The notes: generated by a model from the letters alone, not told the origin. A stretch of 64,000 bases of DNA from Ignavibacteria bacterium (GCA_020635205.1 JACKAE010000005.1:258361-322360); one strand, 5' to 3'. Numbered from the stretch's first letter, positions 3,080 to 53,045 are shown. Numbers and translations are program-made.

Positions 3080-3090
3080 AGTTGGGAGTG
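3035..3090 (+). repeat. heptamer-based dispersed repeat (KAGAGTT/TGAGTGT family), copy at murG 3' end
   Basis: GTTCATAGAGTTAAGAGTTCATAGAGTTGGGAGTG; supplies the last codons (..VHRVKSS*) of murG. Confidence 0.7.
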
Positions 3091-12784: not shown

Positions 12785-12850
12785 GAGTGGGTGAGTGTAT
12801 AGAGTTCATAGAGAGGAGAGTTGATAGAGTGTATAGAATTGGTAGACGCA
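12781..12850 (+). repeat. heptamer-based dispersed repeat copy
   Basis: GAGTGGGTGAGTGTATAGAGTTCATAGAGAGGAGAGTTGATAGAGTGTATAGAATTGGTAGA. Confidence 0.7.
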
Positions 12851-14648: not shown

Positions 14649-15152
14649 ATGAACGCCAACTACTGGATCAACAAACTCAACTTGATTGAACATCCCGAGG
14701 GGGGCTACTTCCGTGAAGTCTATCGTTCTACGCACTCTATGTCCCCGGATGCTCTCCCGGCAGGGTTGAGCGGAGAACACGATCTTGCCACCTCGATCTA
14801 CTTCCTGATTACAAGTGCAAAGCCTTCTCACTTCCACCGACTGAAGTCCGATGAACTTTGGTACTTCCACGAAGGCACTCCCATTACAATCCACACGATA
14901 GATGTGGAGGGAGAATATCGACCGTTGAAGTTGGGGAGAAACATTGAGGCTGGAGAAGACTTTCAGCATATCGTCCCCTCACATACCTGGTTCGGGGCAA
15001 CGGTAGAGGATGCGGGTGGATTCGGCTTGGTGAGTTGTACCGTAGTTCCCGGTTTCGAGTTCAGTGATTTTGAACTTGCGAGTCGTTCGGAACTGCTTCG
15101 GGAGTTCCCAGAACATCAACAGATTATTGAACGGCTTACTTCAGTAGAATAG
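14649..15152 (+). CDS. cupin (DUF985-like) protein
   Basis: 167 aa. The N-terminus LIEHPEGGYFREVYRS is typical of DUF985 cupins. Confidence 0.6.
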   Translation: MNANYWINKLNLIEHPEGGYFREVYRSTHSMSPDALPAGLSGEHDLATSIYFLITSAKPSHFHRLKSDELWYFHEGTPITIHTIDVEGEYRPLKLGRNIEAGEDFQHIVPSHTWFGATVEDAGGFGLVSCTVVPGFEFSDFELASRSELLREFPEHQQIIERLTSVE

Positions 15153-15154
15153 TT

Positions 15155-15694
15155 ATGGAAGATTCATTTAGTGCGGGATTCCTCGCGTTAGCACGCCACG
15201 AGTTTCGTCGGTTAAAATCTCTTGCCGATAAAGGAATTGCGCAGGTTGATCCGACAAACTTTTTTGCTCGTTCCGACGGTGAGTCGAACAGCATTGCAAT
15301 TCTCGTAAAGCACATGTCGGGCAACCTTCGCTCACGCTGGACCGATTTTTTAACGACCGACGGAGAGAAGCCAGATCGCAACCGTGATACTGAGTTTGAA
15401 GTGGAAAACTCGGAGAGAGCAGAGCACCTAATGTCTGAGTGGGAAGATTGCTGGAACGTTCTCTTTAATACTCTCGAGGAATTAACGCCGAGCGATCTGA
15501 CCCGGACAATCACAATTCGTGGCGAGGAGTTTTTGGTCTATCAAGCAATTACTCGGCAGATCAGCCACTACGCATATCACGTTGGACAGATTGTGATGTT
15601 AGCGAAGCGTTGGCGTTCGGGAGAGTGGCAGACGCTGAGTATTGCGCGAGGAAAATCGGAAGAGTTCAGAGCAAATCCAGAGAAATACTTGTAG
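15155..15694 (+). CDS. DinB_2/DUF1572-family protein
   Basis: 179 aa; helix-bundle DinB-like with a HYAYHVGQI motif. Separated from the preceding gene by 3 nt. Confidence 0.55.
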   Translation: MEDSFSAGFLALARHEFRRLKSLADKGIAQVDPTNFFARSDGESNSIAILVKHMSGNLRSRWTDFLTTDGEKPDRNRDTEFEVENSERAEHLMSEWEDCWNVLFNTLEELTPSDLTRTITIRGEEFLVYQAITRQISHYAYHVGQIVMLAKRWRSGEWQTLSIARGKSEEFRANPEKYL

Positions 15695-15770
15695 GATTTT
15701 ACTCTTCTCCCAACAAACATTTGTAGATTTAAGAGCCACATGATAATTCCTCACATAAACATGAAAGAAC

Positions 15771-16001
15771 ATGGATGATCTCATCAAAAAAGTAGCAGAC
15801 AAAGTTGGTATTACTACAGAACAAGCCAAAGATGCTGTAGAAACAGTAATGAACTTTATGAAGGATAAATTCCCTGATATTGGAGATAAAGTAAAAGGAC
15901 TCGTTTCTGGTCTGGATAAAGATGGTGACGGACTCGACATGGGAGATGTGAAGAGTGCCGTTACTGGTCTCTTCGGCAAGAAAGATGAAGAGGGTGATTA
16001 A
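15771..16001 (+). CDS. small acidic hypothetical protein
   Basis: 76-aa ORF in a locally AT-rich stretch. Lys/Asp-rich with a DKDGDGLDMGD (EF-hand-like?) loop. Weak hairpin downstream (16029..16061). Confidence 0.4.
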   Translation: MDDLIKKVADKVGITTEQAKDAVETVMNFMKDKFPDIGDKVKGLVSGLDKDGDGLDMGDVKSAVTGLFGKKDEEGD

Positions 16002-16092
16002 TCAACGGTAGAAGTTCCCAAGGTGTGCAAGGGTAGAGAGAGGTGCTATCCTTGCACATCATTTACGTAAAATAGACCAACGCCAGATCGCC

Positions 16093-16557
16093 ATGACAGC
16101 TGAAGAACGTGCAGAGCAGATTGAGGCCATTCGCTCGTTGCCAGAGTTGCTGGAAAATGCTGTGGCAGACCTGAGTGATCGCCGCCTCGACACCTCCTAC
16201 CGTGAAGGTGGGTGGACACGCCGCCAAGTTGTTCACCACATTGCCGACTCACACCTGAACGGCTACACGCGGATGAAGCTGATCTTGACAGAGAACCGAC
16301 CGACGTTGAAGCCCTACGATCAAGATGCGTGGGCTACCCTCTCTGATTCAACTCTTCCAGTTAAAGGAACGCTTGCGCTGCTGCGAGGACTTCACCAACG
16401 TTGGGGGGCTTTCCTCGACACGGTTAGGGATGATGAGTGGCATCGAGTTGCCGACCATCCAGAAGATGGGGAAGTGACGCTCGAAGAACTACTTAGAATT
16501 TACGCTTGGCACGGCATCCATCACCTGAACCAGATTATGTCGGAGAGTGCCTTTTAA
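16093..16557 (+). CDS. DinB/YfiT-family metal-dependent hydrolase (bacillithiol-transferase-like)
   Basis: 154 aa. Three conserved His positions (HHIADSH ... WHGIHHLNQI) are typical of DinB/YfiT. Confidence 0.7.
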   Translation: MTAEERAEQIEAIRSLPELLENAVADLSDRRLDTSYREGGWTRRQVVHHIADSHLNGYTRMKLILTENRPTLKPYDQDAWATLSDSTLPVKGTLALLRGLHQRWGAFLDTVRDDEWHRVADHPEDGEVTLEELLRIYAWHGIHHLNQIMSESAF

Positions 16558-16771
16558 AAAGCCCTCTTCGTGGTAGGTGAAGATTTAGCGAAGCCGAGAG
16601 TAGGTCTTCTGATCTGTCGTGGTGGATATCGAATATCCCCGAAGGGAATACCACGGGTTATTTTGCAGAATATCGGCAACAGGATAGTTCTTCTCTACAA
16701 GACCTGCGAGACTCTTCACTCCGCTACGCTTCATTCAGAGTGACCAGGATAGTATTGTAGAGTCATTCCAG

Positions 16772-18943
16772 TCATCTCAACCGCAACATCCGTCCTCGCA
16801 CCACCTTCAACTCTAACCAGGTCACGTTCTCTTCACCTATCGTATCCATCACTGGACGGAGATACTCCAGACCATGCTTCAGGAACGCACCTTGAATTTG
16901 CCTTGCCTTTTCGTTCGGGACAATCCGATCAATATCTTGAATCAATCCGTGGAGGACAGCATCGGAGATATGATCCTCGATTGTCCTCAACGTGATATCC
17001 CGTTCAGCCGCAATCTCTTCAGGTGAAAGGCCACGGTTGAAGAGTTCTCCCGTGATCTCCGCACTCTCCGAAAGCTCTCCAACTTCTACAGTTATTCTCG
17101 GTGATGGCGTCGTGATCTGCGTTCCCTTCACTCCCGGATTCTCTTCCACAAACCTACCGACCAATTCAAGGAACGCTCTGCCATACCGATTCGCCTTCAC
17201 ATCTCCTACGCCACTGATTTGCAAGAGATCATCATGGTTCAGTGGCATCCTCTGCGCCATCTCCTGCAATGTCTTATCTCCAAAAATCACGTAGGGAGGA
17301 ACGTTCTGCCGATCTGCGGTTCGCTTGCGAAGTGAGCGGAGTTGACCGAAGAGAATCTGTTCCGTTTCGGAGAGCACTTCCTTCCCCTTCGCTTTCTGAT
17401 TCCCCTTCTTCTCTGGTCGTCGTGTCCGCTGCAGCTCTACGCTCCGTTCATTTCGGAGCACTTCCCAACCCTTCTCCGTAACGCTCAGCGTGTTAAAGGC
17501 TTCTATCCGTTGGCGCAGATAACCTTCAGAAACCAGAGCAGTGGCAAGCCAACGCCACTCTGTTGTCGGCTGATCTTTTCCCACTCCCCACGTTGGAAGC
17601 AGGTGGTGGCGGTTGCCGATAATCTTTGTCGCCTCAGAACCGCGCAACACATCAATTGTGTAGGAGATGCCGAAGCTCTCCTTCAGCCGGACAACACAGG
17701 AGAGGAGTTTCTGTGCCATTGTTGTGGCGTCGAAGAATTCGGAGAGAGAAGGGTTCAGGCAATTGTCGCACGCGCCGCAGTTCTCCTCTGGGTAATCTTC
17801 GCCGAAGTGAGAGAGGAGCACTTTCCTTCGACATTTCCCCGACTCAGCGTAGGCGGTAATTTCATCTAAACTTGAGAGTGCAACAGCACGTTCTTGCGGG
17901 TCGACCATCTCCGTGATGAAGTGGAGAACCTTGCTTCGGTCACCACTACTGTAGAGGAGGAGACAGTCGGATGGGAGTCCATCCCGTCCTGCACGACCAA
18001 TCTCTTGGTAGTAGCTCATCATATTCTTCGGCAGGTTGTAGTGGATCACATACCGCACATTCGATTTGTCGATCCCCATGCCGAAGGCAATCGTTGCGCA
18101 AATCACATCTACCTCATCCCTCTCGAACATCTCCTGATGTTTTGTTCGACTCTCCCGATTCAATCCAGCGTGGTAGGGGAGTGCACGATAGCCTTGTCTC
18201 TCGAGCCGTTCTGCCAACTTCTCCGTGGCAGCCCGGCTCATGCAGTAGATAATACCCGACTCACCCGGAAAGCGATTCACCAAATCGAAAATCTGACTCA
18301 CCCCACTTTTATGCTGCACACTGATATTCAGGTTCGGTCGGTCGAAGCTCGCTACGTAGGTCTTCGCATTGTTCCCCAGCCGGAGTTGCTCCAGAATGTC
18401 GGCTCGCACTCGCTGGTTGGCAGTGGCGGTCATCGCAATCACCGGAACGTTCGGGTAACGATCCCGGAGCGTTGAGAGATTCCGGTAGTCAACCCGGAAG
18501 TCGTGTCCCCACTCGCTGATACAGTGGGCTTCATCGACCGCAATCAGTGAGAGCGTAGCACGATCCAGTAGGTCGAGCGTTGCCGGCAGCAATAGACGTT
18601 CTGGAGCCAAGTAGAGAAGTTTGATCTTCCCCTGAAGGGCATCACTCTTCCGCTGTTCAATCTCACTATAGTCGAGCGAACTGTTGATAAACGTCGCCGG
18701 AACCCCGGCAGCTTGCAGGGCATCTACCTGATCTTTCATCAGAGCGATAAGCGGGGAGACAACAACGGTAAGTCCGGGAAGCAGTAGAGCAGGCAACTGA
18801 TAGCAGAGAGACTTCCCCCCACCAGTCGGCATCAACACAAACGAGTTATCTCCGGCAACCACACCGGAGATAATCTCCTCCTGCAGAGGCCGAAACTCAG
18901 AATACCCAAAATAGTGCTGAAGCGTAGCGCGAAGATTATTCAT
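16772..18943 (-). CDS. recQ: ATP-dependent DNA helicase RecQ
   Basis: 723 aa with DEAH box (VDEAHCISEWGHDFR), Walker A (PTGGGKSLCYQLPAL), RecQ-Ct zinc cluster (CGACDNC), winged helix and C-terminal HRDC region. Confidence 0.93.
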   Translation of the reverse strand: MNNLRATLQHYFGYSEFRPLQEEIISGVVAGDNSFVLMPTGGGKSLCYQLPALLLPGLTVVVSPLIALMKDQVDALQAAGVPATFINSSLDYSEIEQRKSDALQGKIKLLYLAPERLLLPATLDLLDRATLSLIAVDEAHCISEWGHDFRVDYRNLSTLRDRYPNVPVIAMTATANQRVRADILEQLRLGNNAKTYVASFDRPNLNISVQHKSGVSQIFDLVNRFPGESGIIYCMSRAATEKLAERLERQGYRALPYHAGLNRESRTKHQEMFERDEVDVICATIAFGMGIDKSNVRYVIHYNLPKNMMSYYQEIGRAGRDGLPSDCLLLYSSGDRSKVLHFITEMVDPQERAVALSSLDEITAYAESGKCRRKVLLSHFGEDYPEENCGACDNCLNPSLSEFFDATTMAQKLLSCVVRLKESFGISYTIDVLRGSEATKIIGNRHHLLPTWGVGKDQPTTEWRWLATALVSEGYLRQRIEAFNTLSVTEKGWEVLRNERSVELQRTRRPEKKGNQKAKGKEVLSETEQILFGQLRSLRKRTADRQNVPPYVIFGDKTLQEMAQRMPLNHDDLLQISGVGDVKANRYGRAFLELVGRFVEENPGVKGTQITTPSPRITVEVGELSESAEITGELFNRGLSPEEIAAERDITLRTIEDHISDAVLHGLIQDIDRIVPNEKARQIQGAFLKHGLEYLRPVMDTIGEENVTWLELKVVRGRMLRLR

Positions 18944-21157: not shown

Positions 21158-21497
21158 TGAAGTATTGCTGCTACAACGAAGTTCTACCTTGACATTATCT
21201 TTGGCATAGAATTGATTAATCGATGAGATGTCTTACGATAAAAGTAGTGTCCCATCGATAGGCTGTCACTACTACATATCTACTACGAGTTCATCTTGCC
21301 TCGTTATTCTTGTATGGAAATAATCTCAAGAGAGATATGAAGGAGATTATGGGGATCATTTTTTTCTCTTCCTTCTATCTATTCTCCAATCAGCCGTATA
21401 TTCTTCAGTAAATCAGATGCTACCGAATACTATCACAGGCTCTCATGATTCGTTCTGATGAACTCTCACTCTTCTCCGAATCTTGGATTGAATTGAT

Positions 21498-22722
21498 TTG
21501 GTGGAATGCCTTCGCTATAAGGCTGAGCGTGACAGCGAGCTCCTCGCTGCTCTACAACGTTGGGACGAACGACGATTTCTGAAAGAAACCTCCGATGAGG
21601 TTGGCTTTATCGATCACTTCTTTAAACGACTTTGGAACTATCGAGCAAATGGCGAAGTGGAAAACGGGCAGCCCTTCTCCTTGTGGCCGAAGTTCCCCGT
21701 GATCGGTGCGGGAGAACGTGGTGGAACCGGACAGGCCGACCTCGCTCTCGGATATTTTGGTAGTGTGCCCGGAGGAACAGAAATACCTCAGGTACTCTGC
21801 GAGTTGAAGGATATTCGCTCTGGCCTCGATGCTCCCCAACATTGATAAGCAGGAAGTCCCGAAGCTTCTGATACCACGTTTGATTCAACGATTGTTTTGC
21901 ACTATCGATAGTGAAGGGGAATTCTATCTCGACAATGTGGATGTTGGAGGAATACTGCCGACTTCCGTGAGCGAACTTGCATATCTGGCCGGTATCTTGA
22001 ATTCACCTGTTCCGAACTTTGTCTGGAGATATATTTCCAAGCCATTCCAAAACGACTACCGTTCAGCCAACAAACAATTCATCGCTCCACTCCCCATTCC
22101 CGAGGCAACACCAAAGCAGATAACTGAAGTGGGAGATCGGGCAAAAGAGTTGCAGCAGCTTCACACAAGGTACAACGAGCACCTTCAAGAAGCAGCCAAT
22201 GCAAGCCTGACAAGCGAAACGAGTCGTGGATTTGGGCCGACCTCAGAAGAGATGCAAATGCTTGGAAAGGGGAGGCTCCAGAAGAACTCACGGCACGAGA
22301 AAAAACAGCCTGGGCCAAGCAACATCGTGAAGCACTTCTGGAATCGCACTACGCCAAAATCGACCCACGGCTCCGTCCGGGGGCAACCCTCACTGCTGAA
22401 TTCTCTCGTGGAGAACTTCAACTCTACGCCGACGGCATACCGGTAATCACCGGAATCTACCTCGATGCCGAAGAGGGAAAGTGGGTCAATGGCAACAGAT
22501 TGCTCGCCGCACAAACGTGACAGAAAAGTTCACAGCCAAGAAACTTCTTTCCTCTCTCCTCGCACTACCGAAAACACCGCACTAAAAGCTCAAATCGAGC
22601 ACTTACACACCAACATCGAACAACTGAAAGCAGAAATCGAAGAGAAAGAGAATCTCCTGAACGAGGTAATCTACCAACTATATGACTTGGATGAGGAGGA
22701 GAGGAGTGTAGTAGATGTGTAG
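21498..22722 (+). pseudogene. remnant of a type IIG (MmeI/Eco57I-like) restriction-modification enzyme: N-terminal PD-(D/E)xK nuclease fragment + C-terminal TRD/tail, methyltransferase core deleted
   Basis: Three successive ORFs in different frames (21498..21845, 21829..22446, 22465..22722). The first has D...ELK (ADLALGYF...VLCELKD) like the MmeI-family N-terminal nuclease. The second has LAYLAGILNSPVPNFVWRYISKP (TaqI_C/Eco57I C-terminal specificity-domain motif). The third ends ...LNEVIYQLYDLDEEERSVVDV, the hallmark C-terminal tail of Eco57I/PglX-type enzymes. Total length is about 1.2 kb versus about 2.8-3 kb for intact enzymes. Confidence 0.5.
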
Positions 22723-23003
22723 TAGGTAATAGGGAGTCGAATGTGGGTACTATTGTGGCTATGAGAATCGCACTTCACAATGTACTTGGTTATTGAAGCC
22801 AGTAAGTCGAGTGTGAAGGCACTCAGGAACAAGAACGCAATTGTTGTCAAATAATTAACAAGAGAGTGCGAGCAGCAAGTTCTTCTTTCCACAATCTAAT
22901 TCCCCAAGACGATAGTTGTTCGGAGTTGTTCCCTTGCTGAAGAATACAAGTAGAATGTATGCACTCAAAATGCTAATAGAAATTAAAATTCATTAGAGGT
23001 GAC

Positions 23004-24140
23004 ATGCCTATTCGAGGAAATCCTTTGATCTATAAGGGACAAGGAAAAGATTGGGGGCACTTAGATGCGAGTGAAATGCCAATTGACGTAAGCTCAGTTA
23101 ATATTAGTGCGTTCCCTACTCGTGCATACTTTTGGCCTGAATCAAATGAATATGCATTGACTGTTACTGAGGTTGACACCGACAATCGTTTAGATATTCA
23201 AAATTTACGATCAAGTATCCCACTTGATCTACATGTCATTATCCCATCAGAATCCTTTAAGTGCAAGGCCTGTGTGGATATATTAGCAACACAGAAAATA
23301 TTCGACTCTTTAGGGTGGGGAATCAGGTTGAGGAATGTGAATTTTGAGTATAATCCTGGCTTATGCAATACCCTTTGCGATTCCAGTGATTCGCGTTTGA
23401 AAGAAATTTCAAGACCCAATAGTAATACACTTAATGTCTTCTACTGCTCTAATGTTAAGGTAAACATCCGTGAAAAAGGTGAAAAACAAAGCTCTGCATA
23501 CGGCAATGCAGGGCAAGGCTTTGTTATGTTGGGATTTGCATCTTCCCCTCACCTTATGGCCCATGAGCTTTTACACACAATGGGCATGAAAGATATCACT
23601 GATGAGAACCTCTCTCATTATTTTTTGTCGCAGTTCTCGTTAAGCCGAACAACTATTACTGGTGGGCAAATAGCCTGTTCTCATTATTATCGATATTCGA
23701 TTGTAGCTAATGGATCGTGTGAATGTGACTTCCCAGGTTCTATCGATCCTTGTTTGCCGTCAGCAGTATCTATGCCTGAACGCTCTCTAACTACGGGAAG
23801 GGCTGAATTCTTGAGTTCTACTGATCAACTTCTTACTCTCGATTGTTCATACACTCCAATAGATACTACCTTTGCGAGTTGGGTTGATGAAGAGCAGGCT
23901 GATCGTCTCATCGGAATTTTAAGTGAAGCTTCAGAACGTGAAATGATAGAAGAACAAGATTTTATAGAGTCTTGGGTTTCTTTTATTAGAGATGCATACA
24001 ACGATTTATGGGACAACCTTTTTCCAAGAACCAACGGGGAAAATTGCCGATTGTATATACAAGAATCACTATATCGTGTTTTATGTAGAGGGCTAATAAT
24101 CTTAGTGGAAAGTAATAGAGAATTCTTCACTTCTGAATAA
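23004..24140 (+). CDS. hypothetical protein with HExxH zinc-metallopeptidase-like motif, AT-rich (foreign)
   Basis: 378 aa with HELLH in the context GFASSPHLMAHELLHTMGM, and several Cys. GC is clearly lower than surrounding genes. No signal peptide seen. Confidence 0.5.
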   Translation: MPIRGNPLIYKGQGKDWGHLDASEMPIDVSSVNISAFPTRAYFWPESNEYALTVTEVDTDNRLDIQNLRSSIPLDLHVIIPSESFKCKACVDILATQKIFDSLGWGIRLRNVNFEYNPGLCNTLCDSSDSRLKEISRPNSNTLNVFYCSNVKVNIREKGEKQSSAYGNAGQGFVMLGFASSPHLMAHELLHTMGMKDITDENLSHYFLSQFSLSRTTITGGQIACSHYYRYSIVANGSCECDFPGSIDPCLPSAVSMPERSLTTGRAEFLSSTDQLLTLDCSYTPIDTTFASWVDEEQADRLIGILSEASEREMIEEQDFIESWVSFIRDAYNDLWDNLFPRTNGENCRLYIQESLYRVLCRGLIILVESNREFFTSE

Positions 24141-24152
24141 AACAATAGAAAT

Positions 24153-24593
24153 ATGCCTGAAGTTGTATTTGATGCGGGAACGCATAGTCTGAAACTTGAA
24201 ATTCCCAGTGATTTATGGGGGTATATCTATATCCGATTTATAGATGTCAATCGGGTAAGAAGTATCAAGTTGTATGCTGTCTCGTCAGTTGGAGTTCAAT
24301 CACTTATACACGAGTGGATATCATGTGACTATCCTTATTTGAGTGATACAACACACTTGGTTTATAAGGAATTGCCTCCGGCGTATGATGGCTCATATTA
24401 TCGTATTGTACCAGAATACCATCCAACGTCTATCTGTTCTGCCCCATCTCCTACTAATACGCTATATGCTGCCCCAAGCAATTCAGTAATATTCCCAGCA
24501 TCCGATTATTATCATTCGGCATGGGATTTTGATTTTGATGGCACAAAAACACAAATTATTATTGTTATGGAGAAAGATCGTGGTGGTGGCTAA
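24153..24593 (+). CDS. hypothetical protein (AT-rich cassette partner)
   Basis: 146 aa, 12 nt downstream of the previous gene. Same low GC. No recognisable motif. Confidence 0.4.
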   Translation: MPEVVFDAGTHSLKLEIPSDLWGYIYIRFIDVNRVRSIKLYAVSSVGVQSLIHEWISCDYPYLSDTTHLVYKELPPAYDGSYYRIVPEYHPTSICSAPSPTNTLYAAPSNSVIFPASDYYHSAWDFDFDGTKTQIIIVMEKDRGGG

Positions 24594-24632
24594 TATTAAT
24601 TTCTGCCAATAACTGGCAGAATTTCTTCATAG

Positions 24633-27600
24633 TCAGTTTGTATGATATAGGTCTAATTGGACTTTGTTTAGTCCATCAATAAATGCTTGAGCGCTCGGAT
24701 GGTCTTTGCCATGCAGATCGATGAATTGTGGCAGATACGTCTCATATATTTTCAAAGCCTCTTCTCGTCGAGAATTGATTCTGCGTAAGGCTGCTGCAAT
24801 GTTAAGCTGACTGGCTATAACACGTGAATGTCCATCAGGGAGATGTTTAATTCGTATTGTCAGCGCACGTTTGTAGGCTTTAAGAGATATTGCGGGTTCC
24901 AAATCGAGTAATAGACCTCCCAAGTTTGTCAACTTTACTGCTATGGAAAGGTGATCCGTCCCAAGCTGTATTTCATCAATTTCGATGGCTTTACGTAATA
25001 CTTGCTCGGCCTCTTCAACGAGGCCGAGCAAATCTAACGGCAGACTGAGATTGGTGAGAACCAGTCCTGTATTCGGATGGTTCTCACCATATATCCCTTC
25101 ATATATCTTTAAGACCTGACGAAAGATAGTTGTAGCCTCTTCATACTTCTCGGCTTGCGTCAACAACGTTGCCATATTATTCATGCACGTAGCAACGCCA
25201 ATATCTACCTTTGTCACAGCATTCCGTTTTAACACTTCCAGCTCATATCGGAAACACTCTTCGGCCTCACTGTATCGTATTTGCCCATAGTAAACCGCTC
25301 CAAGCATTCCCATCGTCGAAGCTGTGTCCCGATGTCCTTTTCCTTGTAGGTGCTCACGTAGTTTCAATGCTCGCTTCAATACTTTTTCTGCTTCTTTGAA
25401 CTCTTTGACTTGGTAGCAGAAAGAGCCAAATTCTTCTAAAGATTGGGCATAATCCAACGAGTTCTTTCCACACGCTTTTCCCGTGAGTTCGACACTTTGC
25501 TTTAACGCTTTTTCTGCGTCACGATAGTTTCCTGCTTCAGTGAGTGATGTTCCGAGAAGTCCAAAGAGTTGAGCCAACGTTCGCTTTTCATTCGGGAGCT
25601 TTTCAGTGATTGTTGTCGCTTGAGCTGCAAACTTTGTAGCGTTAGAGTATTCGCCTGCTACTCTTAAGAACTGCGCTGCTTCTGATAAATGCAGTGCTCG
25701 TTCTTTTCCTTTAAGGTTACGAGGTATCAGGGCTTTTGGGAGATCGCTTCCGCTCGGTAGACTTCCTGCTTCTTTTGCTGTGCGCCAGAATCCTAAGAGA
25801 GTGAAGCGATTCTCTTCAGTGTTAAGTATAGAGAAGAGATTGGTGAGGGCGGAGGAGAGCTCTTCCATTGCACTTACTGCACTCCACCCCGAGAGTTCTT
25901 CCATTGCTCGCCGGAGTGTCGGAGGCTGTGTTGAAAACCATTCTGCAACAGTTCGGTGTGTACTCCGTTTCCCCCTCGCCGACTTCAAATACCGTCTCTC
26001 AACGGCTCCCCTCAAATAGTCGTGGTGGAAGCGGTGAAGTCCTTCTTGTCGGATCATGTGGAAATCAAATGCTGCCAAGAGTTTGGAGAGTTGAGGTGTT
26101 GGTTTGCCAATAATTCCGTGAAGTTCTTCTAAGCTCAACCCATTCCGCGATGCCCAAATCAGACTCATCACTTGGCGTGTCAGCCCTTTCCCAAAGTCAA
26201 CTTCCATCCGCTCGAGAATGCGTTGGTAGAGTTCTTCTAAACTCTCGGCGGCTAAGTAGTGGTTGATTCTATCGTCCAGCTTCTCATGCTGACCGAAGAT
26301 GCGCAGTTCTTCGAGACTTGTTCGGAGATAGAGGGGGTTTGTAGTGTTGCTATTGGAGGCAATGCGTGCAGTTTGCTTCGGTTCAAGCTGTTTGCCGAAG
26401 CGATCAAAGTAAGCGCGGACAGCCTGCTGTCTGGCTCTCGTTCCTAACAAGTGAACGTTTACAGTTGGCCACTTTCGGGCGGTACAGGCCTCCAGCAGAG
26501 AACCGGGGAGCGTGGAGAGAATAATTCTCACATTTGGGTGGAAGTCGAGCGGGAGCCAGTCCAGGTGATCTGTCCCAGCAAGTTGGTTGAGTGCGTCGAT
26601 GAGAATCACAAGGCGATCTTCCCCAAGGCGTGCAAGCCAAGCTGGAAATTCGTTGACGATGTCGGCTGGCTCAAGTGGTGGAGTCTCTTCGATGTCGTAC
26701 CGTTCCTTAATCTCCACCATCACTCGCCTAAGCAATCCGAACTGGTCGCTACTTCCGGGGGTTGCGCCGATATAGTGCTCAATGACGAATGTGTTGGGGT
26801 TTGCCTCGCAATAGCGTTTGCTCCACCAAGAGAGGAGAGAACTTTTTCCCGATCCCGATTCACCTGTAACGACAATCGGATAAACCCGCGAGTTCTCCCC
26901 CTTCTTTGATGAAGTTGTTGCTGTGGCAACGTATTCATCTAATTTCCGCAGAGTCGGCTCGTGCTCGATATATGCTCGCCTCCTTGATTCCGCAAAGGCG
27001 TTGTGTCCCCTGCGCTCCGCTTCAAGCCACGAATCGTGACTTCCACGTTCGGGAGTAATCGAGTCGAGGATTGATAGTAAATCTTTGCGTACCAGCTCCC
27101 CAAGCTGTTTCGGAGTTCGATAGCCTTCGCGATAGGGAAAATGGCTTTCTTGAACGCGCTCTCGAAATTGTTGTAGTCTTCTTCGTTCGCGTTCGTTCTC
27201 TTCAGAACCATTTGCTTTCTGTCCACCTGACTTCCGTTTGAAGTAGAAGAAGACGTGATCTCGCAATTCTGGATCGTTCATTGGAGCTACCAGACTCTCG
27301 AGTTCCGTCAGACTTCGTTGTTGTTGGATTGCCTCGGAGAGCCAGGGATATCGATCGTCGACATCTGTGATTGCCTTCAGGTCACGTTCATCCGGGCACC
27401 ATCCATAGCGGTCACCGATCAGCGAGATAATGTAGGGTTTGTGCCTCTTGATCTCATCCAAACAAAGTTCAACGATCTTATGTCTGCGCGCCTGCCGTTC
27501 CGTAATTCCCCAACGCAGGTCAACTTCAGTGAAGACTACGCCACGCTCGCGACAGATGCGGCGAATCTCTGGAAACACTTTCTTCACCAAATACTCCCGC

Positions 27601-27665
27601 TCCTCACCCATATCGGTAAATGTGCTGGAGAGGAAGATGCGCAAGTCAGTAGCGGAAGAGTTCAT
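24633..27665 (-). CDS. DUF4062-NACHT/STAND P-loop NTPase-TPR protein (NLR-like, candidate antiviral STAND ATPase)
   Basis: 1010 aa. The N-terminus LRIFLSSTFTDMGEEREYLVKKVFPEI matches DUF4062 (IFISSTFxDMxxERD). Walker A is VVTGESGSGKSSLLS and Walker B-like is LVILIDALNQ. The C-terminal ~400 aa is a run of TPR_10/12-type repeats (e.g. ...NMATLLTQAEKYEEATTIFRQVLKIYEG...). Confidence 0.8.
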   Translation of the reverse strand: MNSSATDLRIFLSSTFTDMGEEREYLVKKVFPEIRRICRERGVVFTEVDLRWGITERQARRHKIVELCLDEIKRHKPYIISLIGDRYGWCPDERDLKAITDVDDRYPWLSEAIQQQRSLTELESLVAPMNDPELRDHVFFYFKRKSGGQKANGSEENERERRRLQQFRERVQESHFPYREGYRTPKQLGELVRKDLLSILDSITPERGSHDSWLEAERRGHNAFAESRRRAYIEHEPTLRKLDEYVATATTSSKKGENSRVYPIVVTGESGSGKSSLLSWWSKRYCEANPNTFVIEHYIGATPGSSDQFGLLRRVMVEIKERYDIEETPPLEPADIVNEFPAWLARLGEDRLVILIDALNQLAGTDHLDWLPLDFHPNVRIILSTLPGSLLEACTARKWPTVNVHLLGTRARQQAVRAYFDRFGKQLEPKQTARIASNSNTTNPLYLRTSLEELRIFGQHEKLDDRINHYLAAESLEELYQRILERMEVDFGKGLTRQVMSLIWASRNGLSLEELHGIIGKPTPQLSKLLAAFDFHMIRQEGLHRFHHDYLRGAVERRYLKSARGKRSTHRTVAEWFSTQPPTLRRAMEELSGWSAVSAMEELSSALTNLFSILNTEENRFTLLGFWRTAKEAGSLPSGSDLPKALIPRNLKGKERALHLSEAAQFLRVAGEYSNATKFAAQATTITEKLPNEKRTLAQLFGLLGTSLTEAGNYRDAEKALKQSVELTGKACGKNSLDYAQSLEEFGSFCYQVKEFKEAEKVLKRALKLREHLQGKGHRDTASTMGMLGAVYYGQIRYSEAEECFRYELEVLKRNAVTKVDIGVATCMNNMATLLTQAEKYEEATTIFRQVLKIYEGIYGENHPNTGLVLTNLSLPLDLLGLVEEAEQVLRKAIEIDEIQLGTDHLSIAVKLTNLGGLLLDLEPAISLKAYKRALTIRIKHLPDGHSRVIASQLNIAAALRRINSRREEALKIYETYLPQFIDLHGKDHPSAQAFIDGLNKVQLDLYHTN

Positions 27666-27722
27666 AGAGTTGAGAGTTGGTAGAGTTTATAGAGTATGTG
27701 AGTGTATAAGATCTATGACTGA
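27656..27722 (+). repeat. heptamer-based dispersed repeat copy between STAND gene start and TPR-LuxR gene end
   Basis: TTCATAGAGTTGAGAGTTGGTAGAGTTTATAGAGTATGTGAGTGTATAAG. Confidence 0.7.
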
Positions 27723-27755
27723 AGGCTCATTTCTCATAGCTGAAAGCTCTCCCCC

Positions 27756-29486
27756 CTACAACCCCTGCAAAAATGTTCCTAACTCTACTTTCGAGTCGAT
27801 TTCAATCTTGCCTCGGATTCTGTAGCGTGTGGTTTCTACTGTTCGGGTGGTGACGTGGAGAAGTTCAGCAATCTCACCGGTGGAAAGTCCCGTGACAGCC
27901 AGCGCACAAAACTGCAAGTCTTTCTGTGTTAGGAGTGGCCAGCGGCGGGCGATGCGGTGGAGTAGTTCGGGGTTCGTTCGCTCGAATTGTTGTTGGAAAC
28001 TTTGCCAGTTCATGTTGTTAGAGAAGCTTCTCTTAATCTCCTGTATCATCTCTTCAGCCAACGGTTTTACGTCGTCTCGCGCTTCGGTTTTTATCTTCTC
28101 AAGTTTTTCTACCAGCGTCTCGATGAACTTCTGTTTCTCTATAAGTTGGAGCGAGAGGGCGTTCAGTTCTGCTTTGTCTGTCCGTATCTCTGCCTCCAAT
28201 CGCTCTGCCTTCAGTTGTAGTATCTCTCGTTCGTTCTCCGAACGCTCAAGGTCAAACCGTGTCTGGGTTTCGGCAGCTATCTTCCGCTGCTCCCGCATAT
28301 CTATTTCACGCTGCAATTCAATGTAGCGGCGCAGGTGATGAATACCCTTCGTCGAATCTCCAATCTGCTCTAATGTCTCAGCCAACAGTTCGTGGCAGCG
28401 GCAGAGAATGTTTGTCTCTTCAATCTCTTCTGCTAATAGCAATGTCTGCTCGAGTACGTAGCGTGCGTCGTTCAACTTGCCTGCTCGTGCGTAGAGTGAG
28501 CCGAGGCCGACCAGGGCAATTGCCTGGCCTCGTTGGTCGTTAAGATCTTCGAAAATGTCGAGTGCCTTCACTCGATAGTCGGCGGCACTTTGCAAGTCGC
28601 CACTCCCTTCGGAAATATTCGAGAGGTTTAAGAGGGTGGTGGCAATTCCTTTCTGGTCGTGTAGTGCGTCGTAGATTGCTAAGGCTCGGAGTCCACAGTG
28701 GAGTGCACTCTCAACCTGACCTATCGCTGTGTAGATGTTCGTCAGGTTCACCAACGTCATCACTTCCAGTGCGTGAGAACGTGAGTCGTGGAATTGGGTC
28801 AGCGCCGACTGCAAGTGTTCGAGTGCTCTCTTCGTCTCTCCAAGCTCTGCGTATGCAATTCCAATATCGCTCAGGGCGCGTCCCCTCTCTTCAGAGGGAG
28901 CACTCTTTTCGGCAATGCGGAGTAAGTCCAAGAAGAGGGGGAGTGCGCGGGCATGATCTCCGATCGTCGTGTAGAACTCCCCCAACTCCTTCAGAGCACT
29001 CTTCTGTTCCTCACGATTCTCCTCTTTTTTGGAGAGGTCAATTGCTTCCTTATAGAACTCTGTCGTCTCCGCAAAGCGTTTTAGTTCTCTGGAGGCACGT
29101 GCAGATTTTAGGTTAAGCCGAATGCGCTCTTCAGTTGCATCGACATCTTTAAAGATGCGGAGTGCTTTCCCCCACGACTTTAGTGCCTGCTTCCAATTAT
29201 TTCCCCGGGCGTGACAATCTCCCTCAAGTTCAAATCCTTCACCGATTGAAACTGAGCGATTTAAATCTTCAGCAAGAGTAATCATCTCTTGCAGCCAGTT
29301 GAAATGTTCCTCCGTAGGGGGAACGTGATGTTCTGAGAGAGTGCGCCCCAGCGACTGGAGTATCGACAGGCGGTCAGGAAGACTCGTCGTTGTGTCGAGA
29401 CGTTTGGCCAGAGAACGAAGCGTTGTCGAGTAAGTACTCATCAACCACACCTGATAAGTAAGTAGTACTGCGGGATATTCAAGCAA
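27756..29486 (-). CDS. TPR-repeat / coiled-coil / LuxR(GerE)-type HTH transcriptional regulator
   Basis: 576 aa with N-terminal TPR repeats, a central coiled coil (ERLEAEIRTDKAELNALSLQLIEKQKFIETLVEKLE) and a C-terminal LuxR HTH (LTQKDLQFCALAVTGLSTGEIAELLHVTTRTVETTRYRIRGKI). Confidence 0.8.
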   Translation of the reverse strand: MLEYPAVLLTYQVWLMSTYSTTLRSLAKRLDTTTSLPDRLSILQSLGRTLSEHHVPPTEEHFNWLQEMITLAEDLNRSVSIGEGFELEGDCHARGNNWKQALKSWGKALRIFKDVDATEERIRLNLKSARASRELKRFAETTEFYKEAIDLSKKEENREEQKSALKELGEFYTTIGDHARALPLFLDLLRIAEKSAPSEERGRALSDIGIAYAELGETKRALEHLQSALTQFHDSRSHALEVMTLVNLTNIYTAIGQVESALHCGLRALAIYDALHDQKGIATTLLNLSNISEGSGDLQSAADYRVKALDIFEDLNDQRGQAIALVGLGSLYARAGKLNDARYVLEQTLLLAEEIEETNILCRCHELLAETLEQIGDSTKGIHHLRRYIELQREIDMREQRKIAAETQTRFDLERSENEREILQLKAERLEAEIRTDKAELNALSLQLIEKQKFIETLVEKLEKIKTEARDDVKPLAEEMIQEIKRSFSNNMNWQSFQQQFERTNPELLHRIARRWPLLTQKDLQFCALAVTGLSTGEIAELLHVTTRTVETTRYRIRGKIEIDSKVELGTFLQGL

Positions 29487-29984
29487 TTCTTTCGGGGATG
29501 TAAATCAGTCAGGGAGGGAAGAAGTATTGAAGGGAATCTTCTTCTCCCGTTGTACCTCCGATGGTTTTCGATTTTTCGACTGATTCCGGCTGCAAAGATA
29601 TGCTCTTTGTAATTGTTAGCGCAAGGTCTCTGCTGTTTGAGGCCGGAAAGTATTTACTCTCAGTTGGGTGGTCCGTTCTCGCCCCGCGAAGTAGAGCCGG
29701 ATCACTATAGCTATATCGGGAAGACTCTTCATCGTCTTGAGAGGAAACTCCTCGCAGCGGGTGGAACATACGATCGATCATATCCATCTGCTCGTAAGCC
29801 TTCACCTGTCTACGTATACATTCGCGTGGAGATAGTAGGTGGCGTATCTCCCTGGACTGGCTTCCGGGAGTATGGGGTATCATCCACTTTCGGCAGATTT
29901 CTTGAGGGAGAATGTTGTATCGGGGTGTGGTGTCTTATCTTCCTATCTCTGATAGCTTTAAACAGTATGATGGAGGCAAGTTTT

Positions 29985-30743
29985 ATGAATCGACTTCTTA
30001 CACAGATTGGTGTGTTGTTGGCTACCAACGCTTTTGTTCTTTTTCAGGGATGCGATAGTGGTACAGACTGGGAGCCTCGCAGCACATTCCTTGTTACTGA
30101 ACCCAATGTCGGTAGCACCTACACCTACAATGACTACGAAACAGAAGAAGGCATGAAAATCGATTCAACTGAACAGACGGTGACAGTTGAAGTAGTTGAG
30201 AGAGGGATTCCCTTCAAGAGTAAATTGGATGTACTGCGTACTCAGGAGACCGGGACGCTCGATCTGACCGGTACAACTACCGATACAACTTATGGGTATA
30301 TCACGGTTGAGAATGATAACAACGTTTCACTCTGGCTTGACTTTGAAGGTAAATCTGACCTTCCGGGAGTAGACCAGGATTGGATGACATTGCCGTTCGC
30401 AACCAGAGTGGATCAGAACCTGACCCTGGTCAATACGATCGAAGATGATGGTAGTGGCGGAAAGGACACCCTCCAGTTGTTTGCAACAGCATCGTGGGTG
30501 CGAGAAGAGACCGTACAGTTTCAGGGGAATGATCTAAAGATTTCAGTCTGCAAGCTAAAGCTGAACGGAACCTTCCCTTTCCCTTTTGGTGGACAGATTG
30601 ATCTGGATGGAGAAACAGATTTCTACTTTGCTCCGGAGATCGGATATGTCTATAAAATCGAGGAGAACATAACGGCCCGCACAGATATTGCTGAGCAAAC
30701 TACCGGATCAGTCCGTCTGCTGACATCGTATACACTGAAATAA
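29985..30743 (+). CDS. hypothetical lipoprotein
   Basis: The MNRLLTQIGVLLATNAFVLFQGC lipobox start is preferred over the 29613 ORF start. Thr/Asp-rich beta-rich protein. Confidence 0.5.
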   Translation: MNRLLTQIGVLLATNAFVLFQGCDSGTDWEPRSTFLVTEPNVGSTYTYNDYETEEGMKIDSTEQTVTVEVVERGIPFKSKLDVLRTQETGTLDLTGTTTDTTYGYITVENDNNVSLWLDFEGKSDLPGVDQDWMTLPFATRVDQNLTLVNTIEDDGSGGKDTLQLFATASWVREETVQFQGNDLKISVCKLKLNGTFPFPFGGQIDLDGETDFYFAPEIGYVYKIEENITARTDIAEQTTGSVRLLTSYTLK

Positions 30744-38611: not shown

Positions 38612-40618
38612 ATGAGTAACGAAATCAATCCGGGGGGGCCTGATCGTCGTCCCGGGAAGCGATCCGGTGATGAGGAACCGGGTGTTAGCCGTATGATGCG
38701 AACAGTGGTGGCCTGGCTGGTAATTATCGCAGGTTTTCTGCTGATCCTGATGCTCGTTGGCCAACGTTCTTCCCAGACTGTGCAGGTCAGCTACGACGAA
38801 TTCCAACGTCTGCTAAATGCCGAAGTCATCAAGGATGCAAAACTTATTAAGTCCCAAGATAACAGTTGGGAGTTCCAAGGGAAACTGACGGAAGCCATGG
38901 ATGTAAAGGTTGCCGGAAGAGGGGGGGAGACGCAGAAGACAGAATATATCTTCACTGAACTTGCTCCTGTTTCAGACGAGACGTTGGCGGCTTGGGATCC
39001 GAAGATTAAGGGAGAAGTGATAATTGACGAGGGGGACGGTTTTATGTGGGGCTTCCTTCTCACATTCTTTCCTTGGCTAATTCTGATTGCGGTGATGATC
39101 TTCTTCTTCCGCCGAATGCAGGGGGGGGCTACTCGGGGCATCTTTAGTTTCGGTAAATCCCGTGCAAAAACCTTGAGCGAAACCTCGCCCCGCATTACGT
39201 TCGCTGATGTGGCCGGAGCCGAAGAGGCGAAGGAAGAGTTGCAAGAGGTTGTAGAGTTCCTCCGCGATCCAGGACGCTTCCAGCGGTTGGGGGCAAAGAT
39301 TCCACGTGGTGTGCTGTTGCTCGGTAGGCCCGGTACAGGCAAAACCCTTCTGGCCAGAGCTGTAGCAGGAGAGGCTGGCGTCCAGTTTATGTCAATTTCG
39401 GGTGCAGACTTTGTGGAGATGTTCGTTGGTGTTGGGGCAAGTCGTGTGCGAGACCTCTTTGAGCAGGCAAAGAAAGTTGCCCCAGCAATTGTCTTTATCG
39501 ACGAGATTGATGCCGTCGGTCGGCAACGAGGAGCCGGACTTGGAGGGGGACACGACGAGCGGGAGCAGACGCTGAACGCGCTTCTTGTGGAGATGGATGG
39601 CTTCGAGCCGAACACGGGCGTTATTATTATCGCCGCAACCAACCGTCCGGACGTACTTGATCCAGCACTTCTCAGGCCGGGACGCTTCGACCGTCAGGTG
39701 ATTGTGGATCTTCCCGATCGCCGTGGTCGCGAGGGTATCTTGAAAGTTCACACACGCAAACTTCCGCTGGCCGAGAATGTTGATCTGGAATCCTTAGCGA
39801 AGGCAACGCCTGGCTTCAGCGGAGCAGACATTGCCAACCTCTGCAACGAGGCGGCTATCTTCGCTGCACGTCGCAACGGTGAGCGGGTGACGATGTACGA
39901 CTTCGAAATGGCGAAAGACAAACTGATGTTAGGGCTTGAACGCCGTACAATGGTAATGAGCGAAGAAGAAAAGAAGATGACTGCCTACCACGAGTGTGGG
40001 CACGTTATTGTCGGGAAGTTTGTCCCACACAGCGATCCTCTCCACAAGGTGACAATTATTCCGCGTGGTCGTGCTCTCGGGGTTACGCACTTCTTGCCAC
40101 AGGATGATAAGCACTCACGTTCCAGAGAGTGGTTCGAGGCAAAAATTGCGATGGCTCTCGGTGGACGTGCAGCGGAACTTCTTGTCTTTGGGAACTATAC
40201 AAGTGGCGCGCAGGGAGATATTAAGATGGTAACGCAGATGGCGCGCCAGATGGTTTGCGAACTCGGAATGTCCGAGAAGCTCGGTCCGGTAAACTACTCG
40301 TCGGGAGATGGGGAAGTATTTCTCGGACGTGATTTTGCCGTTCACAAAGATATTAGTGAGGCAACGGCTGAAATTATCGACAAAGAAGTGAGGCAGATTA
40401 TTGATGAGGGAATGGAACTTGCTCAGGAAGTTCTGAAACAACACGAAGAGTTGCTCCACACGATGTCGGCATTGCTGATAGAGCGAGAGACGCTCGACGC
40501 TGAAGAGATTGAGATGGTGATTAAGGGGGAGGAACTGCCGCCAATGGAAGTGAAGCAGATGTTGCACGCACGCCTTGCTTCCGGTGAGAGTGTTTCGGTT
40601 GAATCGAAGAGTTCATAG
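38612..40618 (+). CDS. ftsH: ATP-dependent zinc metalloprotease FtsH
   Basis: 668 aa with two TM helices, AAA Walker A ([18 protein letters not shown]), SRH and HEcGH zinc motif ([10 protein letters not shown]). Confidence 0.95.
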
Positions 40619-40880
40619 AGTTGAGAGTGTATAGAGAGAAGAGTGTATGAGTTGGTGAGTGTCTGAGAACTGATGTCTCACTGTCAACGCTCTGTTCCTC
40701 TCTCCTGAAAGGAGAACTGAAAAGTGGCCGGGTGGCGTAAGCCCCCGGATGCCAGCAGCATAGAGAAGAGTTCGTAACGAGTTCATAGAGTTGGGAGAGA
40801 AGAGTTCATAGAGTTGGTGAGTGTCTGAGATTTATTGCTGATATCTGAGAACTGATGTCTCAACGCTCACTGCTCAACGC
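40608..40880 (+). repeat. compound repeat region after ftsH: two heptamer-repeat blocks plus an ~80-bp direct duplication
   Basis: Block 1 is GAGTTCATAGAGTTGAGAGTGTATAGAGAGAAGAGTGTATGAGTTGGTGAGTGTCTGAGAACTGATGTCTCA... Block 2 is GAGTTCATAGAGTTGGGAGAGAAGAGTTCATAGAGTTGGTGAGTGTCTGAGA...CTGAGAACTGATGTCTCAACGCTC. TTGGTGAGTGTCTGAGA and CTGAGAACTGATGTCTCA..AACGCTC recur. Confidence 0.75.
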
Positions 40881-52958: not shown

Positions 52959-53045
52959 AACGGATTCTGAGTTTAATAGAGTTCGTAGAGTTTGTAGAGT
53001 TCATAGAGTAGAGAGTGTAGTCACCGTACCCAATAAACTGGGGGA
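52958..53045 (+). repeat. heptamer-based dispersed repeat copy between mdh start and phosphoesterase gene end
   Basis: GAGTTTAATAGAGTTCGTAGAGTTTGTAGAGTTCATAGAGTAGAGAGTGTAGTC. Confidence 0.7.

Follow-up and report, generated by a model that had tools for sequence, protein, structure and literature searches.

The question raised by the locus described here is whether two adjacent, co-oriented genes of an Ignavibacteria bacterium encode an immune receptor and its regulator and, if so, by which chemistry such a receptor would act. The locus lies within a stretch of 64,000 nucleotides (GCA_020635205.1, JACKAE010000005.1:258361-322360; hereafter the window, to whose first letter all window positions refer). 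It comprises a gene for a 1010-residue protein of the STAND (signal transduction ATPase with numerous domains) type and, upstream of it, a gene for a protein with tetratricopeptide repeats (TPRs) and a LuxR-type helix-turn-helix (HTH), called the partner in what follows. An initial annotation, made from the sequence alone, had described the former as an antiphage protein analogous to eukaryotic NOD-like receptors (NLRs), and had suggested that the latter may control it. Both open reading frames (ORFs), as well as the motifs quoted for the larger one, are present on the minus strand where that annotation had placed them.

Our results lead us to favor, with a probability of roughly 0.6, the view that the 1010-residue protein is a single-chain NLR-like STAND receptor whose effector is its N-terminal NIR/DUF4062 domain, a TIR-like hydrolase of nicotinamide adenine dinucleotide (NAD+). 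The protein is a new member of a class first described in 2026, not a new class.

Domain architecture of the STAND protein

Pfam searches identified DUF4062 (PF13271) at residues 9-94 (44.6 bits against a gathering threshold of 24.7) as well as TPR_12 (134.8 bits) and TPR_10 (110.4 bits), with further matches below threshold to HTH_NWD1, NPHP3_hel and TPR_NPHP3. The motifs IFLSSTFTDMGEEREYL, GESGSGKS and LVILID are found at residues 10-26, 268-275 and 352-357, respectively. The full-length AlphaFold2 model was predicted with a mean local distance difference test score (pLDDT) of 88.7 and a template modelling score (pTM) of 0.81, and Foldseek matched it to the archaeal STAND-TPR protein 6mfv (E=2e-12), to Avs3 bound to terminase (8dgc) and to the TPR domains of kinesin light chains (KLC1/2) and LGN. 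On the strength of the Pfam family matches and the Foldseek matches, the order of domains is NIR, a probable NACHT module of the NWD1/NPHP3/TEP1 type and KLC-like TPRs. The effector-STAND-TPR architecture that had been read from the sequence is thus borne out by Pfam, the predicted model and Foldseek, and so is the analogy with NLRs.

The central NTPase had been called NACHT/NB-ARC, a designation of which the matches across the family favor the first half. The window protein alone scored 20.6-22.9 bits against the NACHT model, below its threshold of 26.7; across the family, NACHT matched 16 of 16 members at E<=0.01 (best 1e-10) and NB-ARC none of them, while HTH_NWD1, NPHP3_hel and NPHP3_N were matched by 16, 12 and 11 of the 16, respectively. 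Residues 429-600 are modelled as helices and a beta-hairpin, as winged-helix and helical modules would be. Searches of the PDB by sequence and by profile matched the P-loop only and retrieved no solved sequence homologue of the NACHT module. The Walker A lysine K274 and the Walker B aspartate D357 are kept in all 83 relatives that were translated from fetched loci. The C-terminal array, modelled as all-helical repeats and matched by TPR_12, TPR_10 and TPR_NPHP3, is the presumed sensor.

The NIR domain and its predicted active site

The effector chemistry had initially been considered uncharacterised, a statement that is now outdated. DUF4062 was recognised as an effector only in 2026, when three preprints showed it to be a TIR-like NAD+ hydrolase (NADase), renamed NIR, which acts in phage defence and converts NAD+ into ADP-ribose (ADPR) and nicotinamide. 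According to one of them, 20% of NIR genes have defence genes nearby, where 3.9% would be expected. In human TEP1, E1008 is catalytic and the alanine mutant of R908 is impaired (bioRxiv 10.64898/2026.05.01.722283).

Residues 1-237 of the window protein matched the crystal-structure chain of the TEP1 DUF4062 domain (PDB 11gz) with E=5.6e-18, and both are near-identical in two stretches, DLRWG(I/V)TE and RS(L/V)TE(L/M)E. The published TEP1 numbering is offset by 893 from that of the PDB chain, in which R908, R954, R976 and E1008 are R15, R61, R83 and E115; E123 of the window protein is therefore the counterpart of E1008, R86 that of R976, T17 that of R908 and K63 that of R954. A first guess for the catalytic residue, E93 in GWCPDE, made by analogy with the WxxxE motif of TIR domains, was rejected because the TEP1 alignment puts E1008 on E123. 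This Glu is unvaried in an alignment of 50 sequences and is kept in 82 of the 83 translated relatives, the sole exception having no NIR domain. R86 is kept in 77 of them, and the position of R908 is occupied by Arg in 62. The AlphaFold2 model of residues 1-240 (pLDDT 84) contains five parallel strands and five helices in the TIR-like or deoxyribosyltransferase-like Rossmannoid arrangement; Foldseek returned no significant match for this model. The DUF4062/TIR-like N terminus proposed initially is hence well founded on Pfam, the TEP1 match and the predicted fold, and the catalytic Glu foreseen for it has a conserved candidate in E123.

Two relatives that are linked to a partner homologue, L049 (5983-9099) and L075 (5911-9171; L-numbers denote related loci), no longer show SSTFxD, the canonical motif of the NIR domain, but TCDGRE and SCDDR in its place; the catalytic Glu and the NTPase motifs are retained despite this loss.

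Proposed mode of action

PsAvs2, a NIR-STAND-TPR protein of Pseudomonas chlororaphis, protects E. coli, depletes NAD+, needs its E108 and is triggered by phage terminase (bioRxiv 10.64898/2026.09.04.749371). By analogy with PsAvs2 and TEP1, the NIR domain of the window protein would be an NAD+ hydrolase releasing ADPR and nicotinamide, and we infer a defence function for the whole protein. At rest, it would be kept monomeric and ADP-bound by its C-terminal TPR array together with the NACHT module. Binding of a foreign protein, most probably from a phage, to the TPRs would permit nucleotide exchange and NACHT-driven oligomerisation, which in turn would gather the N-terminal NIR domains, open their BB loops and activate NAD+ hydrolysis. 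The resulting loss of NAD+ would arrest the infected cell, that is, it would lead to abortive infection.

Distribution of the family

Protein searches retrieved more than 1000 relatives, many of them named 'nephrocystin-3' by JGI; the nearest, at 86% identity, belongs to a Candidatus Kapaibacterium metagenome-assembled genome (MAG). A genome scan confirmed at least 576 loci, spread over more than 12 phyla, including Kapaibacteria, Ignavibacteriota, Chlorobiota, Bacteroidota, Planctomycetota, Acidobacteriota, Armatimonadota, Thermodesulfobacteriota, Methylococcaceae and others, with up to four copies per MAG among the matches listed. The distribution is patchy, spans many phyla and includes paralogue expansions, and these multi-copy sets of NIR-NACHT-TPR or NACHT-TPR genes resemble the expansions of NLR families. 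Among records of mobile elements, the family was found in no phage, in one IMG/VR contig and in two plasmids. Among the 108 genes that neighbour 15 related loci are type II methyltransferases and restriction endonucleases, mad2/mad3, SAVED-TIR and PDC candidates, together with unspecific matches.

Paralogues within one MAG were observed in an Ignavibacteriae MAG (L019, L055, L063 and L065) and in a Methylococcaceae MAG (L011, L023 and L031), and L002 carries a second NACHT-TPR gene (15129-17786) at 4 kb from the first.

NIR and NACHT modules of the same type as in human TEP1, NWD1/2 and the ciliopathy protein NPHP3 occur in this bacterial clade of at least 576 loci. What activates the clade, and whether it cleaves NAD+, would bear both on why NPHP3 and NWD1/2 look enzymatically silent and on the bacterial ancestry of eukaryotic NLR-like proteins.

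The LuxR-TPR partner

In the partner, Pfam recognised five TPR_12 stretches (108 bits) and a GerE/LuxR HTH (PF00196; 33 bits against a threshold of 23.5), the latter at residues 519-569 of a 576-residue ORF that starts with TTG (27756-29486). The start is probably the ATG at 29441, which yields 561 residues, and less likely the TTG at 29486, because an identical 561-residue protein is on record (P0121). The HTH is conserved in an alignment of nine partner homologues. As the initial annotation had noted, the partner is co-oriented with the STAND gene and separated from it by a spacer with a dispersed repeat; this spacer measures 90 nt and contains part of an AGAGTT array. A site scan found no terminator-like or sigma-70-like site in it, and the 60 nt before the STAND ATG are near-identical in L001. 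Both genes are probably co-transcribed.

A partner homologue lies directly upstream of the STAND gene, in the same orientation and at gaps of 37-112 nt, in L001/L004, L002, L075 and L049, whose STAND proteins are 30-86% identical to that of the window. The identities to the window for partner and STAND protein, respectively, are 90% and 86% in L001/L004, 52% and 60% in L002, and 28-29% and 30-32% in L075 and L049. In L048, L080 and L015 the partner homologue is found 0.7-2.2 kb downstream. Altogether, adjacency was observed in 7 of 80 related genome loci and in the metagenome relative L002, and the linked loci form at least four separate groups of a 41-member clade, largely from Kapaibacteria, Ignavibacteriota, Chlorobiota and Bacteroidota; in the other 73 loci, no partner homologue was found within 6 kb. 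The partner family is small, with four full-length relatives among 5.8 billion clusters. One homologue adjoins thiC on a 5.2-kb contig that bears no STAND gene, and a metagenome scan with the partner alignment, whose patterns are unspecific, gave 13 weak partial relatives among the matches listed, none of them adjoining a STAND gene. Upstream of the partner, nothing alignable that might be a shared operator was found between the window and L002.

We therefore take the linkage to be real but accessory and lineage-restricted, and the partner not to be a core part of the system. It is most likely a transcription factor that sets the expression of the pair, and a regulatory role in this locus is plausible. 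As to the control by the LuxR-TPR gene that had been suggested, and its co-conservation with the STAND gene, the closest relatives retain the pairing and a few distant ones show it again, but the remaining loci, and the homologue beside thiC, do not follow it.

L048 (5850-8360) and L080 (5890-8322) encode NACHT-TPR paralogues of 836 and 810 residues that have no NIR domain and that nevertheless have a partner homologue 0.7-1.2 kb downstream; the pairing is therefore independent of the NADase head.

These NIR-less pairs also argue for a different view, in which both genes form a split regulator of the MalT/LAL/AfsR type: the NACHT-TPR part would sense an endogenous or environmental ligand and act through the TPR-LuxR protein in a non-immune switch, the NIR domain being an interaction module or a weak metabolic enzyme. 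Single-chain regulators that combine STAND, TPR and HTH do exist, the partner and the STAND protein both show weak matches of the TPR_MalT and AfsR type, the human proteins NPHP3, NWD1 and NWD2 have no detectable NADase activity, and the genomic context is one of housekeeping genes. We consider this alternative unlikely, given that (i) a near-universal catalytic Glu within a TEP1-like active-site motif is hard to explain for a pure scaffold, (ii) most family members, 73 of 80 loci, lack a LuxR-TPR neighbour, and (iii) paralogue expansion, patchy distribution and the swapping of sensor tips described below are a better fit to genes engaged in conflict.

The variable tip and the convergent cassette

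The 86%-identical relative P0001 is 90-98% identical to the window protein up to about residue 890 and only about 40% identical over its final ~120 residues. Compared as DNA, the window and L001 are homologous from 29343 to 24985 (86%) and again at 22725-22509 (90%), whereas the intervening 2.26 kb (22726-24984) cannot be aligned with the equivalent 2.23 kb of L001. This block consists of the final ~117 codons of the STAND gene and of two convergent genes for proteins of 146 and 378 residues, and its content of guanine and cytosine (GC) is 0.38-0.40 in the window, L001 and L002, against 0.46-0.51 for the remaining STAND gene and the partner. At the same places and in the same orientation, L001 and L002 encode different, otherwise unrelated proteins. 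What these have in common is a hydrophobic small-protein tail of the form hhhhME..GGG (LIVMENNGGGS in L001, LIIMEQSGGGG in L002; the 146-residue protein of the window ends in IIIVMEKDRGGG) and, in the larger counterparts of L001 and L002, the metzincin motif HExxHxxGLDH with weak reprolysin/matrixin matches. For the 378-residue protein, a word-indexed search of 5.8 billion clusters and a full HMMER search of 1.84 billion representatives gave no relatives beyond two weak repeat-type matches. A cassette with a GGG tail and an HExxH protein was found only in the window, L001/L004 and L002 among the 84 loci examined.

The comparison of these sequences indicates that tip and cassette are exchanged wholesale between close relatives. 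A shufflon or inversion was considered as the source of the variable segment and discarded, as no convincing flanking inverted repeats were found. Since the swapping of alleles at the sensor end of a STAND protein is expected of an immune receptor, we count it in favor of the receptor reading. The cassette itself may be linked to the receptor system. In a more speculative and rather doubtful extension, TPR tip and cassette, the latter encoding a cytosolic metzincin-like protease and the small GGG-tailed protein, would together be an exchangeable specificity unit: the protein would be a guard/decoy-type NLR with swappable guardee alleles, guarding the cassette product or restrained by it, a phage-induced change of this product would fire the NADase, and expression would be tuned by the LuxR-TPR protein. 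One conceivable contact is a clamp of the TPR tip on the GGG tail, like that of the Hop and CHIP TPRs on a C-terminal EEVD-COOH.

The cassette is also relevant to the possibility that the NIR domain does not itself deplete NAD+ to kill, but makes an NAD+-derived signal, as in Thoeris and plant TIRs, or recruits a protein, the killing being left to another effector, for which the neighbouring HExxH protease-like protein is a possible candidate. The TIR family includes such signal producers, the authors of the NIR work raise this option for inactive eukaryotic NIRs, T17 stands in place of an Arg that matters for activity, and the protease-like gene and the small protein co-vary with the C-terminal tip of the receptor. 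On the other hand, the characterised NIRs yield only ADPR and nicotinamide, no additional ADP-ribose derivatives being observed with TEP1, and a cassette present in 3 of 84 loci cannot be the general effector of the family. We thus regard a signalling or recruiting NIR domain as quite improbable, and retain direct NAD+ depletion as the preferred reading.

Genomic context and other features of the window

The locus had been placed in a lower-GC defence island beside restriction-modification (RM) remnants. The remnant is confirmed: an internally deleted type IIG RM gene spans 21498-22446, and, of the 1182 positions in a type IIG endonuclease-methyltransferase model, its two ORFs (21498-21845 and 21829-22446) match 2-37 and 879-996. 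Low GC (0.40-0.45) is limited to 19.4-25 kb, which takes in the STAND gene's 3' end and its downstream neighbours; the NIR and NACHT part and the partner (0.51 each) are at the window mean of 0.50. The support for an island is weak. Several known systems within about 10 genes of each other, which is what an island would contain, were not found in the window, and the degraded type IIG gene lies amid housekeeping genes. PADLOC matches of window genes to DpdF, PsyrT, IetA and BrxH were rejected as helicase and AAA look-alikes. An ordinary RecQ with RQC and HRDC domains (16772-18943) gave the very strong 'DpdF' and 'PsyrT' scores, and those for 'IetA' and 'BrxH' most likely stem from the FtsH-type AAA protease and the DnaB helicase of the window. 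Taken at face value, such matches would inflate counts of defence islands.

An 18-nt inverted repeat, with arms at 21269-21286 and 22708-22725 that are 94% complementary, flanks the RM remnant, and its right arm stops precisely at the breakpoint that delimits the variable block on the left. On the other side of the locus, a predicted lipoprotein gene (MNRLLTQIGVLLATNAFVLFQGC...; 29613-30743, plus strand, probable start near 29949) diverges from the partner gene, and a 50%-identical homologue occupies the equivalent position in L002; the conserved block therefore comprises five genes, and its outer contexts differ between the window and L002.

The decay of the neighbouring RM gene is one of the observations that would suit a further explanation, according to which the gene pair is an evolutionary leftover, expressed and currently without function, and the linkages reflect local synteny among close Kapaibacteria and Ignavibacteria genomes. 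The synteny of the window with L002 does reach the flanking lipoprotein gene, and the closest relatives all belong to one lineage. We nevertheless find this highly improbable: the ORF of 1010 codons is intact and retains every catalytic motif, the linkage to the partner recurs, in differing arrangements and at 30-40% identity, in four or more separate groups, and the five-gene block is embedded in different surroundings in the window and L002. A functional receptor remains our preferred interpretation of the locus.

AGAGTT arrays occur at 752-777, 3062-3082, 27657-27695, 40608-40628, 40787-40814 and 52978-53016, six against 0.02 expected from shuffled sequences, with variants near 12801 and 38478. 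All six are intergenic and lie on the plus strand whatever the direction of the neighbouring genes, and the copy at the STAND start is conserved in L001. No tRNA gene was found in the window. One gene product from the neighbourhood is entered in the databases as protein KDD67_15095 of an 'Ignavibacteriae bacterium' MAG. The features of the locus are collected in Table 1.

Table 1 Features of the NIR-NACHT-TPR locus and its surroundings (window coordinates)
Feature	Position	Strand	Basis
NIR(DUF4062)-NACHT-TPR STAND protein, 1010 aa	24633..27665	-	ORF and translation, Pfam, homologues, AlphaFold2, Foldseek
NIR/DUF4062 TIR-like domain, residues ~6-205, TEP1-type BB loop DLRWGITE	27051..27650	-	
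Codon of E123, predicted catalytic Glu, motif RSLTELE	27297..27299	-	TEP1 alignment, codon checked
NACHT-type NTPase with winged-helix and helical modules, residues ~236-650	25716..26960	-	Pfam on family
Walker A GESGSGKS	26841-26864	-	
Walker B Asp D357	26595-26597	-	
C-terminal TPR array, residues ~653-1010, kinesin-light-chain/NPHP3-like	24636..25709	-	Pfam, model, Foldseek
Variable 3' tip of STAND gene, last ~117 codons, GC 0.42	24633..24984	-	Comparison with P0001 and L001
TPR, coiled-coil and LuxR(GerE)-HTH partner, 561 aa	27756..29441	-	Pfam, P0121, family alignment
Partner HTH	27780-27932	-	
AGAGTT repeat array, 9-nt period, overlapping the STAND start codon and filling part of the spacer	27657..27695	+	
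Terminator-like hairpin, bidirectional, after the STAND stop codon, where the STAND and 146-aa genes converge	24601..24621	.	Site scan
146-aa protein ending IIIVMEKDRGGG, system membership uncertain	24153..24593	+	
378-aa ORFan with HELLHTMGMKD (metzincin-like motif), system membership uncertain	23004..24140	+	

Points that weigh against an NADase receptor

Several observations lower the confidence that we place in an NADase receptor with a role in defence. First, both the window protein and the inspected closest relatives L001 and L002 carry a Thr at the position of TEP1 R908. In addition, no PADLOC model, Avs or other, covers the 1010-residue protein (top score, mad8 with 18.7 bits); the family profiles of Avs types 1-4 do not match it, and its likeness to Avs3 is structural only. 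Among human NIR-NACHT proteins only TEP1 was active as an NADase, and NPHP3, NWD1 and NWD2, which are the closest to the window protein in architecture, were inactive under the conditions assayed. Besides, the experiments on NIR-STAND fusions so far concern an Avs2-type protein and not the present clade. The surroundings also count on this side: the window is mainly made up of housekeeping genes (the dcw cluster with Mur ligases, FtsW, FtsA and FtsZ; DnaB, FtsH, RecQ and ScpA/ScpB), the decayed type IIG gene is its only defence-type neighbour, and several PADLOC 'defence' matches among neighbours are to generic AAA proteins or helicases. Finally, the partner is missing near most of the related loci, and one of its homologues stands beside thiC.

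With its LuxR-TPR partner and its swapped block of tip and cassette, the locus offers handles on how a receptor of this kind is regulated and diversified.

Comparison with known systems

The window pair recalls the regulators MalT, LAL and AfsR in that a STAND NTPase, a TPR-like sensor and an HTH of the LuxR or SARP type are functionally combined. It differs from them in that the HTH is carried by a separate protein devoid of NTPase and the STAND protein bears an enzyme as its head, and the similarity is weak and at the level of the TPRs.

The bacterial NACHT (bNACHT) proteins that Kibby and colleagues are said to have presented in 2023 reportedly are single-gene systems with a NACHT domain, an N-terminal effector and a C-terminal sensor. 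The window protein has the same plan, although it matched no PADLOC model, and NIR is not known to be among the effector types listed for bNACHT proteins.

With Swarozyc, Vulcan, Vesta and the plasmid-borne DUF4062 defence family Evangelion, the window protein shares the effector domain and the required Glu, and these systems work through NAD+ depletion and abortive infection. According to the 2026 preprints, phage portal activates Swarozyc, which needs its E97, and Vulcan and Vesta require E98 and E103. None of the four has an NTPase switch, and their sensors are a portal-binding helical stalk, HEAT repeats, a small ligand domain or an AUX region. KpSwz (E97) barely matches the NIR domain of the window protein (E=3.2).

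NPHP3 has the same order of domains as the window protein, that is, NIR, NACHT, helical domain and KLC-like TPRs. Unlike the latter, it carries a coiled coil at its N terminus and has a role in cilia. The Pfam matches of the window protein to NPHP3- and NWD1-type models are below threshold, and NPHP3, NWD1 and NWD2 showed no NADase activity in vitro.

TEP1 provides the best solved homologue of the NIR domain, with the BB loop DLRWG(V/I)TE, R976 and E1008 corresponding to R86 and E123, and a NACHT module directly after the NIR domain. In contrast to the window protein, it has TROVE and vWA domains before NIR and WD40 repeats after NACHT, is found in vault particles, and has R908 and R954 in place of T17 and K63.

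Finally, PsAvs2 and the window protein have in common an N-terminal NIR domain with its catalytic Glu, a central STAND NTPase and a C-terminal TPR-type sensor, and the logic of PsAvs2, from sensor binding through oligomerisation to NAD+ depletion, is the one that we propose for the window protein. Whereas PsAvs2 combines an Avs2-type NTPase with a terminase-binding sensor, the window protein has a NACHT module of the NWD1/NPHP3/TEP1 type, KLC-like TPRs and, in this lineage, a LuxR-TPR neighbour.

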